The translations under genes were made by a program, and so were the position numbers. From a phage: a DNA stretch of 42,429 bases. Where the stretch lies: the NCBI GenBank assembly GCA_012697465.1, contig GCA_012697465.1_4985.1. One strand, given 5' to 3'. Positions 1 through 7,088 of the stretch are shown piece after piece (positions within the stretch are counted from its first letter, which is position 1; the number at the start of each line of letters is the position of its first letter). The notes under the pieces are model-generated. The model saw nothing but the letters and a program-made list of their open reading frames with translations. It searched no databases and was not told the DNA's origin.

Positions 1-1371
1 AAAAAAACCATGCTTGTCATTCTCAAGCAGGTTGCAAAACTGCGGAAACACGAACAGTCAGCGGTTCTGACGCAGCTTTTTGGCAAAGAGGTTGTGGGTT
101 CAATTGCGCCATTGCTGACGAACATCAAGGAACTGGAAAAGAATTTTGACGCTGTAGCGGACAAAATGAAATATGCCGGTTCGATGGAAAAAGAATACCA
201 GGCACGTGCCGCAACAACGGCAAACGCACTGGTAATATTCCGAAACCAGATCACCGCACTTGGTATCACTATTGGCAGCGTGCTGCTTCCAGCAGTCAAC
301 AGCGTCCTGAAAACCATTAGTCCGTGGATTGGCAAGGTTACAGAACTGGCGCAAGCGCACCCGGTTGTCACCAAAGCCATTGTAGCAACGGCTGGTGCGC
401 TGATTACCATGCGCATTGCCACGTTTGCTGCTGGCTTCGCGTTCACTTACCTGCGCGGTGGTGCGCTTCGTGTTGTAGGTGCCCTGGCTGGTGCCCGCGC
501 ACAGATGGCACTGACGGCGGTTTCCTCGCGTGCGGTTGGTGCCGCAGCTACCGTGGCCAACGGCGGACTGTTGGGCATGGCAACGCGTGGAATCCCTGCC
601 GTTGTCGCTGGCGTGCGCGCCATCGGTGCAGCGTTCATTTCAACCGGCATTGGTGCCCTGATTACCGGCCTGGCGCTTGGCGGCCTGTGGATTTACCGCA
701 ATTGGGCTGGCGTCAAAGCGTTCATGACAGGCACGTTGCAGGGCATCCAGCAAGGGTTGCAGCCTGTAACGGAGAAATTCCAGGCGCTGTGGGATAAGTT
801 AGGACCAGTCAAAACCGCGTTCCAGTGGGTTGCTGACGCTGCTGGCAAGGCGTGGGATTGGTTTACCAAACTGGCCGAGCCTGTGAGTTACAGCGGCGAA
901 GAACTGAAAAAGGCCGGTGACGCTGGCCAGCAGTTCGGCAAGGCGCTGGCGGCAGGCATTGATTTTGTGTTGGGGCCGATTCAGTTCCTGATTGATAAGA
1001 TCATTTGGGTTTCTGACAACATTGGCGCGCTGACGCAAAAAGCCGTTGAGTTCAAAAACAGCGTTTCTGACATGGCTGGTGGTGCCTGGCAGAAAACGAA
1101 AGACTTTTTCAGAAACCCGTTTGGCGGTGATGACGTGCCGGAAGGAAACACTCTGGCGACACCGCAGACACCAGCAAGCGCATTGCCAGCACCGGCACTG
1201 GCTAACCGTGGAGGCAGTACCTACCAGGACAACAGCCAAACTACGATGCAGATCGTGCAGCGCCCTGGTGAGAACACCACAGACCTGGCCAAACGTATTG
1301 CCGACGAACAGGAGCGCCGCCGCCAGGTGCGGCAGCGCAGCATGATGAATGACGGAGTGACGGCACCATGA
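1..1371 (+). CDS. Tail tape measure protein, C-terminal part (gene start lies off the left edge; matching N-terminal part at 41455-42429)
   Basis: ORF open from base 1 in the frame of the ATG at 10; Ala/Gly-rich with hydrophobic stretches; sits directly upstream of gpU/gpX/gpD homologues as in P2-type tail modules. Confidence 0.7.
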   Translation, partial: KKTMLVILKQVAKLRKHEQSAVLTQLFGKEVVGSIAPLLTNIKELEKNFDAVADKMKYAGSMEKEYQARAATTANALVIFRNQITALGITIGSVLLPAVNSVLKTISPWIGKVTELAQAHPVVTKAIVATAGALITMRIATFAAGFAFTYLRGGALRVVGALAGARAQMALTAVSSRAVGAAATVANGGLLGMATRGIPAVVAGVRAIGAAFISTGIGALITGLALGGLWIYRNWAGVKAFMTGTLQGIQQGLQPVTEKFQALWDKLGPVKTAFQWVADAAGKAWDWFTKLAEPVSYSGEELKKAGDAGQQFGKALAAGIDFVLGPIQFLIDKIIWVSDNIGALTQKAVEFKNSVSDMAGGAWQKTKDFFRNPFGGDDVPEGNTLATPQTPASALPAPALANRGGSTYQDNSQTTMQIVQRPGENTTDLAKRIADEQERRRQVRQRSMMNDGVTAP

Positions 1372-1778
1372 CCAGTTTCACGATTTTAACCGGGCAGACC
1401 AACATCATGATGATGTTGGGCGGCTTCCAGTTCTGCATCCTTACTGCGGCATATCAGGAACTGAACCGCCACAGCGAATATAAGTGGCCATCGCAGCACC
1501 GCTTTGGCCAGCGCCCATCATCGCAATTCGTGGGCATCGGAGAGGAAACCATCACTCTGGCTGGCATCATTTACCCTGAATACCGTGGAGGATTTCAGCA
1601 GGTGGAGCAAATGCGCAGCATGGCTGGCCGTGGTCAGCCGCTGTTGCTGGTGGACGGCCTTGGTAAGCTGTGGGGCCGCTGGGTGATTGAAGCCATTGAC
1701 GAAAAACAATCATTGTTTGCCGCGTTCGGTGCGCCGCGCAAACAGGAATTCAATTTGCAACTGCGGCGGTTCAACTAA
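1368..1778 (+). CDS. P2 gpU-like tail protein
   Basis: 136-aa ORF, ATGA overlap with the preceding stop; sequence and position (after tape measure, before X and D) match the P2 gpU family. Confidence 0.75.
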   Translation: MTSFTILTGQTNIMMMLGGFQFCILTAAYQELNRHSEYKWPSQHRFGQRPSSQFVGIGEETITLAGIIYPEYRGGFQQVEQMRSMAGRGQPLLLVDGLGKLWGRWVIEAIDEKQSLFAAFGAPRKQEFNLQLRRFN

Positions 1779-1987
1779 TGCAAACTTACATTACCAAAGA
1801 CGGTGACACAGCGGATTACATCGCCTGGAAATACTACGGCAACCAGGACGATGGCACCGTGGAAGCACTGCTGGACGCCAACAAAGGGCTGGCAGACCGT
1901 GGACCTGTGCTGCCTGCTGGCCTGGTCATCAACCTGCCGGAAATCACGACACCAGCAACCACGCAGGGCATCAAATTATGGGATTAA
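1778..1987 (+). CDS. P2 gpX-like tail protein (LysM-like)
   Basis: 69-aa ORF with the GDT.D.IAW..YG...LL.AN..LAD.G..LPAG pattern typical of phage tail protein X. Confidence 0.7.
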   Translation: MQTYITKDGDTADYIAWKYYGNQDDGTVEALLDANKGLADRGPVLPAGLVINLPEITTPATTQGIKLWD

Positions 1988-3132
1988 CAGGGATTGCGCC
2001 AGCGTTTCGCGTGCTGGCCAACGGCGATGACATCACCGCCAAAATCAATGAACGCCTGATAAGCCTTAGTCTGTCTGACGGCGTAGGGCTGGAATCTGAC
2101 ACGCTGGAAATCAGTCTGGCGGATGATGAACCGGCTAACCCAATCCAGATGCCGGAAACAGGCGCAGAACTGGAACTGTTCCTGGGTTATGACAACTGGA
2201 CCCAACGCATGGGCCTGTTTATCTGTGACGAAGTGGAACTGGCTGGCTGGCCAGGCACCATGACCATCAGGGCGCGCGCTGCCACCTATGACAAGTCAAA
2301 GGGCGGCAAAACCGACCTGCAAACGCAAAAATCACGTAGCTGGACCAAAGGCACGAAGTTTGGCGACATGGTGAAGAAGATAGCCAGCGAACACGGCATG
2401 GAATCAGCCGTGTCAGATAGCATGGCCAAAATCACTCTTCCACACACCGACCAGGCCGATGAATCTGACCTGAACCTGTTACTGCGACTGGCCAAGAAAT
2501 ATGACGGCGTAGTGAAACCATCAGGCGGCAAAATCACGGTCACGAAGCGCGGCGAAGGTAAGACGGCCAGCGGCGAAGAACTGCCAACCATAACGCTGAC
2601 GGCGCAGGATTGCACCGCATTCCGGCTAACCAGCCAGAAGCGCGAAAACGCAGGCACGGTGGTGGCTTACTACCAGGTGACGAAGAAGGCAGCGCGCAAC
2701 GAAGTGAAGGTGGGAGAAGGTGAGCCGGTCAAACGGATTGGAAAATACTACCCAACGCAGGCAATGGCACTGGACGCAGCCAAAGCCGAATTGTCGAAGC
2801 GTCAGCGTAACCAGGTAACTGTTGCCGTGACGCTGCCGGGTGACCCGACCATTGCCGCTGAATGCAAACTGGTGCTGGCTGGGTTTCGTGACGGAATTGA
2901 TGGCGAATGGCTGATTACCCGCGCAGATCACCGGCTGGATGACAACGGTTATTCGTGCGACGTGGAAGCAACGAAGCCGAACAGCGAGGAAGAACCGCAT
3001 GTGCAAATCATCGAGCGCAGGAAGCCGCAAGAAAGCGACCCGCCTGATGATGATGGTCCAGGACACGTGATCGAAGAAAAGGACATTAACGAAGGCGATG
3101 ACGGACCTGGTCACGTCATCGAAGAAAAATAA
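1978..3132 (+). CDS. P2 gpD-like tail protein (late control D family) with C-terminal tandem repeat
   Basis: N-terminus AFRVLANGDDIT...LSLSDGVGLESDTLEISLADDE fits the gpD family; C-terminus carries two copies of DDGPGHVIEEK (about 3049-3129). Confidence 0.8.
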   Translation: MGLTGIAPAFRVLANGDDITAKINERLISLSLSDGVGLESDTLEISLADDEPANPIQMPETGAELELFLGYDNWTQRMGLFICDEVELAGWPGTMTIRARAATYDKSKGGKTDLQTQKSRSWTKGTKFGDMVKKIASEHGMESAVSDSMAKITLPHTDQADESDLNLLLRLAKKYDGVVKPSGGKITVTKRGEGKTASGEELPTITLTAQDCTAFRLTSQKRENAGTVVAYYQVTKKAARNEVKVGEGEPVKRIGKYYPTQAMALDAAKAELSKRQRNQVTVAVTLPGDPTIAAECKLVLAGFRDGIDGEWLITRADHRLDDNGYSCDVEATKPNSEEEPHVQIIERRKPQESDPPDDDGPGHVIEEKDINEGDDGPGHVIEEK

Positions 3133-3149
3133 CAACAAACATTGTTGCA

Positions 3150-3165
3150 ATCATTCTGCATCATC
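3150..3165 (+). repeat. 16-bp exact direct repeat ATCATTCTGCATCATC, left copy
   Basis: Identical 16-mer also at 5777-5792; the two copies bracket the accessory genes and the tRNA. Confidence 0.6.
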
Positions 3166-3226
3166 GTATATCATTACCTTAACCGGGCGGAATACCCGCC
3201 CGGACTACTAACGAGGTAATGCCCAC

Positions 3227-3973
3227 ATGAACACATCAAATAAAACCCTGCTGCAAATACTGGTTGAAGAACTACCGAAACGTGGAGGATGGCCTGATGG
3301 TGCGCTAAATGCCACACAAGATAAAGATGGCGAAGTATGCTTTTCTGACGGTGCAGTCCCTGAATTTGGCCTCGCTGCTTGGGAGGGTGGCAACTGGTGC
3401 GGAAATGAGTTTTACACAATTACGGCCATCGACTACGCCACTGCCATCATAACCCGCGACCAGTACGAAGCCGCGCTGGCAGCCAGTAAAGAACTGCGCC
3501 CGTATCAGGTTTCAACCGAACACTACACTTCTCACGCAAGCGCAGGCAAAACCGCCAGTGCCGACGACACTGACGGCTGGATTCAATGGGCTGGTGGTGA
3601 ATGCCCGGTGGAACGTGGCACGCTGGTTGATATCAAAGACCGTGACGGATTCGTACATTTAGGTGTTGAAGCATTAGACAATAACAATGCCGATGATGTT
3701 TTTTGGCAGCGTGGCGTTTGTGGTGTCAGCGATAACGAAATAATCGCCTACCGCCTGAACCAGACGCAGGACACCAACACCCGCGCGAACGATGACATCC
3801 TGGAAGCCGGCCTGAACGACTGCATTGGCCAGGCGCAAAGCAATGACCATGCGCGCGATGAAATTCTTTACGAACTGGCTAACTTTGCAGCCACTACAAA
3901 AACCAGTCTTGACATTGGTGTTGCCACAGAAATTGCAATTTGGCTTTCTGGCAAAGGTTATCGTAAACAATGA
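3227..3973 (+). CDS. Hypothetical protein (accessory/moron candidate)
   Basis: 248-aa ORF with ATG start in the att-proximal accessory locus; no recognisable motif. Confidence 0.5.
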   Translation: MNTSNKTLLQILVEELPKRGGWPDGALNATQDKDGEVCFSDGAVPEFGLAAWEGGNWCGNEFYTITAIDYATAIITRDQYEAALAASKELRPYQVSTEHYTSHASAGKTASADDTDGWIQWAGGECPVERGTLVDIKDRDGFVHLGVEALDNNNADDVFWQRGVCGVSDNEIIAYRLNQTQDTNTRANDDILEAGLNDCIGQAQSNDHARDEILYELANFAATTKTSLDIGVATEIAIWLSGKGYRKQ

Positions 3974-5495: not shown

Positions 5496-5572
5496 TGGCG
5501 ACCCCTACAGGAATCGAACCTGTAACCTACAGCTTAGAAGGCTGTCGCTCTATCCGGTTGAGCTAAGGGGCC
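5496..5572 (-). tRNA. tRNA-Arg (anticodon UCU)
   Basis: 77-nt cloverleaf folded by hand on the minus strand: 7-bp acceptor stem, D arm, anticodon stem ACAGC/GCUGU with loop CUUCUAA, T arm ACAGG-UUCGAUU-CCUGU, encoded CCA end. Confidence 0.8.
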
Positions 5573-5876: not shown

Positions 5877-7088
5877 ATGCTGACAGAACGCCAGATACAG
5901 GCGGCCATGCGCGCCGTGACCAGTGAAACAGTGTTGAACGATGGGGCCGCAGGACGTGGCAGCGGAAGCCTGCGCCTGCGCATTCGTGCCGGTGCAAAAG
6001 GGCCGAACGCTACCTGGCAGGCCGTCTGGTGGAACGCCGGAAAACAGACCAGTAAGGCGCTTGGCCGCTACCCGGATTTGAGCCTGGCCGACGCGCGCCG
6101 GAAGTATGAAACCGAAGTGCGCGACGTGCTGACGGCTGGCCGTGACCCAAACGCAGTGGTTGCAATGGCCGAAACCCCGACCATTGAAAAATTGTTCCAG
6201 TCTTACATCCAGTACCTGCGCGACAAAGAGACGGCGACCACCCACACATCAGAACACCTGCTGCTGACCGGCAAATACAACGCCGCTGATTTGCTTGGCC
6301 GCAACACCATTGCGTCAACCATCGAACCTGCCGACATCGCCAACGTGCTGGCCAAAGGCGTGAAGCGTGGCGCACGCCGAACCACCGACATGCAGCGCAC
6401 CGCCATGATGGCCGCATTTAATTGGGCGATGAAATCGACACACGATTACACGCAGGAAAACCGCATGGATTGGGGGCTGAAATATAACCCTGTTGCAGCC
6501 GTTCCGCGCGACCAGGCAGCCAACCGCACGCTGGATAGAAACCTGTCAGCGGAGGAAATGAAACACGTATGGGATAACGCGCCGGAACAAAGCGGCGACG
6601 TGATGCGCCTGGTGATGTGCACCGGCCAGCGCGTGATTGAAGTCATGCGCATAGCTGGTGCTGACGTGGACCTGAAAGCCAGGCTGTGGACGATGCCAGC
6701 CAGGAAAACAAAGGGCCGCAAGCAAACCCACATGGTGCCGCTGACCACGCAGGCGGTGGACATCCTGGCCACGCTGATTGACCTGTACGGTGACGGTTAC
6801 CTGTTCCCTGCCCGCGCTGGCGCTAAGGGTGACATTATCGGAATCCCAAGCGTCAGCCGTGGTGCCAGCCGCATGGCAGGCATTAAGCCGTTCACCCCGC
6901 GCGACCTGCGCCGCACCTGGAAGTCACGCGCCGGTGACGCTGGCATTGACAGGTTCACGCGTGACCTTATCCAGCAGCACGCGCAGACTGACACCGGCAG
7001 CAAACATTATGACCGCTTTGACTACCTGCCGCAGATGCGTGACGCGATGACCAAATGGGAAGCCTGGCTGGCTGACGCGCTGAAATAA
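5877..7088 (+). CDS. int: Tyrosine site-specific integrase (P4-type)
   Basis: 403 aa; N-terminal arm-binding-like region (GSGSLRLRIRAGAKG...WQAVWW...YPDLSLADAR), catalytic-domain motifs TGQRVIEV, RDLRRTW, and C-terminal H...HYDRFDY...WEAWL tail; next to a tRNA gene. Confidence 0.85.
   Translation: MLTERQIQAAMRAVTSETVLNDGAAGRGSGSLRLRIRAGAKGPNATWQAVWWNAGKQTSKALGRYPDLSLADARRKYETEVRDVLTAGRDPNAVVAMAETPTIEKLFQSYIQYLRDKETATTHTSEHLLLTGKYNAADLLGRNTIASTIEPADIANVLAKGVKRGARRTTDMQRTAMMAAFNWAMKSTHDYTQENRMDWGLKYNPVAAVPRDQAANRTLDRNLSAEEMKHVWDNAPEQSGDVMRLVMCTGQRVIEVMRIAGADVDLKARLWTMPARKTKGRKQTHMVPLTTQAVDILATLIDLYGDGYLFPARAGAKGDIIGIPSVSRGASRMAGIKPFTPRDLRRTWKSRAGDAGIDRFTRDLIQQHAQTDTGSKHYDRFDYLPQMRDAMTKWEAWLADALK

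Follow-up and report, generated by a model that had tools for sequence, protein, structure and literature searches.

In contractile tails, the baseplate hub is commonly regarded as a compact adaptor that joins the spike to the tube. The described hubs that stand closest to the protein considered here, gpD of phage P2 and the R-type pyocin hub PA0628 (PF05954; 6u5h), belong to the same family, share its fold over residues 7–330 and occupy the same place in a T-U-(X)-D gene module. The chain of the pyocin hub stops 9 residues beyond the point aligned to residue 330, and that of P2 gpD 16 residues beyond it, the extra length of the P2 protein being an internal basic insertion. Neither P2 gpD nor the pyocin R2 hub has an acidic tail, and neither contains the sequence DDGPGHVI. 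In fused hub-spike proteins of the VgrG and eCIS kind the chain runs on from the hub module into the spike.

The stretch of phage DNA that we analysed as a whole (42,429 nt; hereafter the window) encodes a hub whose C-terminus goes on into a tail with two copies of the peptide DDGPGHVIEEK. The two copies go back to a tandem duplication, 48 nt (16 codons) long and specific to one lineage, of a short linear motif on a Jilinvirus hub.

By profile, fold and synteny alike, the 384-aa product is a gpD/gp27-type baseplate hub, so that its description as gpD-like in an earlier note on this DNA was correct. A Pfam profile search gives PF05954 (Phage_GPD) a score of 49.1 bits at residues 115–323, with a cut-off of 30.1; the open reading frame matches PHROG 52 ('tail protein') with E=7.5e-120, and phmmer aligns residues 7–330 of its product to the R-type pyocin hub PA0628 (6u5h_C) with E=7e-43. 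The AlphaFold2 monomer model of the hub has a mean pLDDT of 80.5 and a confident core. Foldseek relates this model to the hubs of pyocin, Mu, P1, T4 (gp27) and VgrG with a probability of 1.00, the best matches being hubs of CIS, pyocin, Mu and VgrG. The gene closes a tail module in which tape-measure, gpU, gpX (LysM) and gpD follow one another (Table 1).

Table 1. Positions in the window of the tail-module genes and of the parts of the hub C-terminus
Feature	Position	Strand	Basis or remark
Tape-measure gene	10-1371		First of the module, ahead of gpU, gpX and gpD
gpU gene	1368-1778		PF06995
gpX gene, LysM	1778-1987		PF05489/LysM
Baseplate hub gene (gpD / gp27-like, 384 aa)	1978..3132	+	PF05954, PHROG 52, 6u5h_C, Foldseek
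Extension start, A331-R347	2968..3018	+	Common to motif-less relatives (...KPNxxxxPxVEV...)
Variable Pro/acid-rich linker, R348-D357, RKPQESDPPD	3019..3048	+	Homologue comparison
Motif copy 1 (internal), DDGPGHVIEEK, D358-K368	3049..3081	+	Sequence
Inter-copy linker, DINEG (GACATTAACGAAGGC)	3082..3096	+	Sequence
Motif copy 2 (terminal), DDGPGHVIEEK, D374-K384	3097..3129	+	Sequence
Stop codon of hub gene	3130-3132	+	

The window is the genome of a Jilinvirus (Iiscvirinae) phage of the ECO1230-10/ECOO78 type. Its hub is 98–99% identical to the hubs of the Escherichia phages vB_EcoM_ECO1230-10, vB_EcoM_ECOO78 and ET-SD-TH, and an identical hub protein is encoded on a Logan contig of 42,459 bp. 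The earlier note had spoken of related prophages. The window is not a resident prophage: megablast with the region finds nothing in 5,426 complete E. coli genomes, and the relatives are Jilinvirus phage isolates. According to the BASEL study, temperate behaviour has never been observed for Jilinvirus phages, and some of them encode seemingly intact lysogeny genes (PMC11990801).

Layout of the C-terminal tail

The hub ends in ...KPQESDPPD-DDGPGHVIEEK-DINEG-DDGPGHVIEEK*. The segment with which the extension starts, A331-R347, still holds the last predicted beta-strand of the protein (V342-R347; AlphaFold2 strand E342-347), and relatives of about 349 aa terminate just past it. Confidence of the model declines along this stretch, with block pLDDT values of 83, 75 and 60 across residues 331–360. 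The linker that comes next differs between homologues in both sequence and length (KKPQESDPPD, KKPAASAPPI, KKPKEGDPPD, RKKPSEDDEPD, HKRSTSSSWNPD and HKRSKPGDWKPE); here pLDDT drops from 60 to below 50, and it is below 50 for residues 359–384. Net charge amounts to –11 for the last 54 residues of the hub and –10 for the last 36, which bears out the earlier description of the region as acidic, and the end points of the pyocin alignment and of P2 gpD given above support its description as a C-terminal extension. The motif-bearing tail is variable, acidic and Pro-rich, has a length of about 35–50 residues and is predicted to be disordered.

The two 11-aa copies, which the earlier note had correctly described as split by DINEG, are identical as peptides, and their DNA matches at 27 of 33 nt. 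All six differences (unit nt 6, 9, 12, 15, 21 and 33) fall on third codon positions and are synonymous. By our own estimate, an exact repeat of 11 residues in a protein of 384 aa is far beyond chance. DDGPGHVIEEK does not occur elsewhere in the six-frame translation of the window, nor does the 15-nt inter-copy linker recur there when up to 3 mismatches are allowed. Tandem Repeats Finder, run over positions 2800–3300, reported no repeat, since the unit occurs just twice, at a distance of 48 nt, and the two occurrences have diverged.

Two candidate descriptions of this region were tried and rejected. One was that the extension was born by duplication of the preceding strand (EEEPKVEVIERK versus DDDGPGHVIEEK); the ungapped score of 18 is equalled by 55% of shuffles. 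The other was an EF-hand loop, for which the consensus is D-x-[DNS]-x-[DNS]-G-x-[ILV]-x-x-x-E. Inspection of D357-K368 (DDDGPGHVIEEK) shows that Pro occupies the fifth and Lys the twelfth position of the loop, and in copy 2 and several homologues position 1 is taken by Gly, Ile, Val or Glu.

Occurrence and conservation of the motif

Among homologues gathered by whole-protein similarity, the pattern [DE]DDGPGHVI[ET]E is present once, at the C-terminus, in every Jilinvirus-type hub at 73–97% identity (P0003-P0013, ep3, HeidiAbel/Bas97, Alux-21, Salmonella PT1, Enterobacter Arya and Klebsiella KA2-1). These one-copy hubs end in ...DDGPGHVIEEK* in the Escherichia/Salmonella group and in ...DDGPGHVITE* in the Enterobacter/Klebsiella group. 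Hubs that are at most 72% identical, such as those of Serratia MQ-4, Pseudomonas Persinger and PPpW-3, Ralstonia phiRSP and many metagenomic ones, lack the motif; they end about 17–19 residues past the core, at a total of about 342–356 aa. The earlier note saw the repeat as something appended to a conserved tail protein, but its unit is a pre-existing conserved C-terminal motif that is found once in hubs down to 73% identity. The possibility raised in the same note, that the segment is conserved in homologues without repeat structure, holds for the motif, which is single in most of them, but not for the repeat, which is a feature of one subclade.

Outside these homologues the motif was sought at the DNA level. 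A degenerate scan of IMG/VR for DDGPGHVI found four contigs, in all of which (4/4) the match is the C-terminus of a gpD, while the same scan of JGI metagenomes and GTDB genomes found 117 loci, one of them a gpD. The remaining loci are internal or out of context, lie in GC-rich DNA and have no similarity to gpD; they are chance matches. It follows from the two scans that the motif is exclusive to the gpD hub of the Jilinvirus group. A protein search with the 44-aa tail only, against a set of 5.8 billion sequences, returned no candidates and likewise missed the known positives. The tail alone has no match among PDB sequences or in Pfam, the string 'GPGHVI' was not found in a literature text search, and the publications consulted on Jilinvirus, ep3 and BASEL do not mention the hub tail.

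At the DNA level the motif is far from uniform. Its 17 copies comprise 13 versions of the 24-nt (8-codon) core, which all encode one peptide, with variation at seven of the eight third positions and at none of the 16 first or second positions; the regular expression behind this comparison forces the peptide, but the phage-isolate loci came from whole-gene similarity and the protein lists are unbiased. The motif is kept as a peptide under strong purifying selection. Since it is invariant, lies between variable flanking linkers and has low pLDDT, it bears the signature of a short linear motif on the end of a disordered tether: predicted disorder and a conserved island under purifying selection between variable flanks are both found here. 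Conservation of the peptide shows that it has a function, but not which function.

Codons that encode this peptide could also be constrained as nucleic acid. The coding DNA of the motif is a quasi-palindrome (GATGACG...CGTCATC), which allows two direct copies of it to form an imperfect hairpin of some 25 bp. Placed as it is at the 3' terminus of the last late tail gene, the hairpin might act as an mRNA stabiliser or a terminator-like element. Positions 3040–3230 fold at –61.9 kcal/mol (z=–5.2), a consensus hairpin of 25 pairs is predicted to join the copies in 4/4 two-copy phages, and a 7-bp stem within the copy is 92% paired over the 13 versions. However, neither the intra-copy stem nor the inter-copy hairpin shows a single compensatory change, and 6 of the 13 versions lack the central pair of the stem, 4-21. 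Inspection of the codons shows that pairs 2-23 and 5-20 use only first and second codon positions, while pairs 6-19 and 7-18 hold under any synonymous codon; all of these are always paired in the 13 versions, and several pairs are thus dictated by the amino-acid sequence itself. Free third positions next to fixed first and second ones are a signature of selection on protein, not on RNA. Part of the z-score is contributed by a separate intergenic hairpin at 3184–3204, and the search for terminator-like sites (none, and no T-run) and for Rfam matches (none) was negative. We consider a role of the nucleic acid itself very unlikely.

It is somewhat easier to imagine, though still quite unlikely in our judgement, that the Asp-Asp...His motif is a metal-binding or structural element in which, for example, the three His363 residues of a trimer coordinate an ion, and not a site that docks onto another protein. 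The two Asp and the His are invariant within the motif, and the tail tip offers a precedent in the His-coordinated iron of central spikes, known for P2, phi92 and Mu (PMC10811340). Against this, there is a single His per copy, the region is predicted to be disordered, and the spacing of the residues is not that of an EF-hand or of DxDxDG. Moreover, the second copy has no His in P0001 and P0127, and the allele is retained there.

Conservation might, finally, be a by-product of an overlapping gene, because an antisense ORF of 174 aa (2626–3150) spans the repeat region, or the repeat might be an artefact of assembly; we give these readings next to no probability. Sense and antisense frames share the same codon register, so that each freely varying third position of the former is a first position of the latter, and the minus-strand translations of the copies differ (FFDDVTRSVI versus FFDHVSWTII); the antisense ORF is not coding. 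The repeat recurs in independent isolates and assemblies, and it is not an assembly artefact because three independently sequenced isolates as well as Logan/ENA contigs carry the two-copy tail. Both readings are ruled out, by the substitution pattern and the independent sequences.

Origin and fate of the second copy

The two-copy tail (384 aa) is found in the window, in ECO1230-10, ECOO78 and ET-SD-TH, and in several Logan/ENA contigs or proteins. One-copy alleles of 368 aa and two-copy alleles of 384 aa occur within one 90%-identity cluster, and the close isolates comprise four of each kind; there is no three-copy allele among the members listed. The duplication itself, and the length polymorphism that the earlier note proposed to look for, are thus confirmed.

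We built a neighbour-joining tree on the first 990 nt of the hub gene, with the tail excluded. The two-copy phages are monophyletic in it with a bootstrap of 98%; their clade, with isolates recorded from China and Ethiopia as well as one from dairy-cow manure, is sister to the one-copy Escherichia/Salmonella group at 99.5%, and the outgroups have one copy. Upstream of the tail, all two-copy alleles carry the haplotype VQIIER, versus VEVIER in one-copy alleles. A single gain of the second copy is parsimonious because of the two-copy monophyly, the one-copy outgroups and the common VQIIER haplotype, and we take the tree as showing one duplication event, which took place no later than at the base of the ECO1230-10/ECOO78 subclade.

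The data do not agree with the earlier suggestion that this event is recent. Within each two-copy phage the copies differ at 4–7 of 11 codons, always synonymously, while the expected number of codon differences is 1.23 (P(X>=6)=3.5e-4). The expectation derives from composition-matched synonymous rates of the remaining gene between one-copy and two-copy phages, whose split is the deepest in the group. The DNA match of the copies, the silence of Tandem Repeats Finder and the sharing of the repeat by a monophyletic clade also speak against a recent origin. It should be added that orthologous motif codons change at about double the average rate of the gene, so the excess of copy divergence is real yet milder than the P-value suggests. 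It may reflect a greater age of the duplication, its introduction from a relative that had diverged, or a survival advantage of repeats whose prior divergence protected them from deletion by slippage.

The two copies can be told apart by their resemblance to the single copy of other phages. Copy 2 shares C at nt 21 and A at nt 33 with single-copy phages, whereas copy 1 has G at both positions, and the mean number of codon differences from single-copy orthologues is 2.8 for copy 2 and 4.85 for copy 1. On this evidence from aligned codons, it is copy 2 that corresponds by orthology to the ancestral terminal copy. Two fixed differences (nt 21 G and nt 33 G) place the 3' part of copy 1 on the derived side of the junction, and the novel DNA is this part together with the 15-nt linker. 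The linker between the copies exists as DINEG, DITEG, DIAEG and DVDEG.

Subsequent fate differs between the copies. In the nine distinct two-copy tails, copy 1 is always intact (9/9), while copy 2 is intact in 6/9: it reads DDGPGGVIGEK in P0001 and P0127, which is confirmed at the DNA level in L136, and DDGPGHVIEGK (...HVIEGK) in P0002. From the decay of copy 2 in some lineages it appears that one intact copy is sufficient and that the motif does not have to lie at the very end of the chain.

These H-to-G and E-to-G changes, seen in the terminal copy of 3/9 tails and never in copy 1, would also be expected if the motif matters but its duplication is an approximately neutral product of slippage or recombination, the redundant copy of which drifts and will be lost or decay. 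One- and two-copy alleles coexist in a single 90%-identity cluster, and one-copy phages are viable isolates, both of which fit such an account. It is more difficult to reconcile with the four isolates that keep peptide-identical copies despite 4–7 synonymous differences per pair. Identity of the peptides despite this synonymous turnover means that both copies are under constraint there, and divergence that is synonymous only indicates that, after the duplication, purifying selection acted on both copies in most lineages. Furthermore, diversity within the two-copy clade equals that within the one-copy clade, so the two-copy allele must be long-lived. We regard a neutral duplication as possible, though on the doubtful side. 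Most likely the second copy adds redundancy or avidity and not a new function, since relatives with a single copy are viable and some two-copy lineages have let the terminal copy decay. The repeat is a real but modest feature at the level of a lineage, and a well-supported, if small, evolutionary observation.

Possible role and comparison with known systems

As to function, we favour, with about as much belief as doubt, a docking peptide tethered to the hub at the hub-spike junction and doubled in one lineage. The tail would be a flexible tether that presents the peptide, three times per trimer and six times in two-copy alleles. Because the chain continues into the spike in the fused VgrG/eCIS homologues, the tail should emerge near the hub-spike junction, a position that we infer by analogy with these proteins. 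There the motif could bind a neighbouring component of the baseplate or the spike during assembly; alternatively, it could bind a component of the host envelope once the tail tip penetrates.

A search for a partner within the phage did not single out a candidate. Between motif-plus and motif-minus phages, the C-terminus of the tape measure, gpU and gpX show no change that tracks the presence of the motif. The genes present in Arya and absent from MQ-4 (ORF 3227-3973, holins, spanin and small ORFs) include no obvious structural partner, and the sole clade-specific neighbour of the hub gene is the same ORF 3227-3973, which is variable and non-structural. The monomer AlphaFold2 model has no docked conformation of the tail.

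A more specific version of the host-side alternative, improbable in our estimate, is worth spelling out. Contraction would drive the hub-spike complex into the envelope, where three to six flexible acidic tails would capture a periplasmic or inner-membrane factor that is specific to Enterobacteriaceae and required for the channel to form or for DNA to enter; in that case the duplication would be an adaptation for avidity. Such a role would account for the presence of the motif in enterobacterial Jilinvirus and its absence from the sister phages of Serratia, Pseudomonas and Ralstonia. Nothing we found, however, specifically favours it over a partner inside the virion.

What can be said is that one small and poorly studied phage genus added to its hub an acidic tail, predicted to be disordered, with an invariant peptide at its end, and that one subclade doubled this peptide. 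Should the peptide serve for docking, it would point to an uncharacterised contact, either within a minimal baseplate of the P2/pyocin type or of the tail tip with the host. The C-terminus of the hub would be a convenient and naturally tolerated place for C-terminal tags or display. Our understanding of contractile tail machines is not changed by the duplicated motif.

Compared with its nearest neighbours, the hub is set apart by its ending. Sister hubs from the Iiscvirinae area (MQ-4, Persinger, PPpW-3 and phiRSP) are 57–70% identical to it and lie in the same gene neighbourhood; they share a ...KPNxxxxPEVEV... ending but lack the linker and the motif. The hub P0014, at 72% identity, ends in ...VENEPPEEE without the motif and may, judged by its sequence, represent an intermediate acidic, Pro-rich tail.

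More distant relatives place other things in this position. The gp27-like module of fused hub-spike proteins (T6SS VgrG; spikes of eCIS, PVC and AFP) superposes on the hub model, and in the targets, which include 7b5h_AJ, 7aef_q and 8gra_G and have 500–650 aa, the chain extends past the hub module. There a folded spike follows, whereas the Jilinvirus hub continues as a peptide of about 50 aa that is predicted to be disordered and its spike is encoded by a separate gene.

In outline, there is also a likeness to proteins of another kind. E. coli SSB (...DDDIPF) and T7 gp2.5 have acidic disordered tails with a conserved docking tip. The Jilinvirus hub is not a member of their family: it has no sequence similarity to them and is a virion hub, not a DNA-binding protein. 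The resemblance lies in the arrangement, in which a variable acidic linker is followed by a short invariant terminal peptide.

Region and ORF downstream of gpD

Across Jilinvirus phages, the intergenic region that follows gpD shows stronger conservation than synonymous positions within gpD itself, and it carries a palindrome, a sigma70-like site and a GC hairpin (see table). A compensatory G/C swap is seen in the hairpin of Klebsiella phage KA2-1, and a T-run 3' of it is found only in Serratia phage MQ-4, a sister phage without the hub motif. The region looks like a regulated promoter/operator with a 5'-UTR hairpin that serves the rightward early genes.

The ORF that begins right after this region has no match in Pfam, and its homologues range in size from 159 aa (phage ep3) up to 282 aa (KA2-1). 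MQ-4 lacks a homologue, and there gpD is directly followed by ParB. The ORF is Jilinvirus-specific, as is the hub motif.

Features of the phage DNA and of a Logan contig
Feature	Position	Strand	Remarks
gpD-downstream intergenic region	3133-3226		begins right after gpD stop
Perfect palindrome	3133-3147		CAACAAACATTGTTG
Sigma70-like site	3145-3174		TTGCAA-18-TATCAT
GC hairpin	3184-3204		CCGGGCGG-AATA-CCCGCCCGG
248-aa ORF	3227-3973	+	directly 3' of gpD; matches PHROG 26870 (annotated unknown function)
tRNA-Arg(tct)	5496-5572	-	adjoins integrase-like ORF
Integrase-like ORF	5877-7088	+	full-length, 403 aa; 83% identity to MQ-4 homologue, whole length covered
Two-copy tail with changed terminal copy	L136 1375-1455		contig of Logan ERR2217796

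Integrase locus

Published data describe seemingly intact integrases in the Jilinvirus phages HeidiAbel and PT1 (PMC11990801). In Enterobacter phage Arya only residues 330-402 are left, which corresponds to the published integrase pseudogene. Since the integrase-like ORF is full-length, unlike that of Arya, the phage studied here is one of those Jilinvirus phages whose integrase seems to be intact.

Motif DNA and evolution of the hub tail

The DNA coding for the motif (3049-3129) is a quasi-palindrome, so a nearly perfect 24-nt inverted repeat can encode DDGPGHVI. All 13 distinct DNA versions use GAT for the first Asp, the second Asp codon is either GAT or GAC, and no covariation in support of a structure was found. 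Some two-copy lineages (the contig L136 and the hub homologues P0001, P0127 and P0002) have nonsynonymous changes in the terminal copy, namely His to Gly (CAC to GGC) and Glu to Gly (GAA to GGA) at either Glu, and their internal copy is intact.

Another hub homologue, P0014 (354 aa, 72% identical), is devoid of the motif and has the C-terminus ...VENEPPEEE. This end resembles the linker ...ESDPPDDD located N-terminal to the motif in Jilinvirus hubs, and the P0014 tail may represent an intermediate state of the hub tail.
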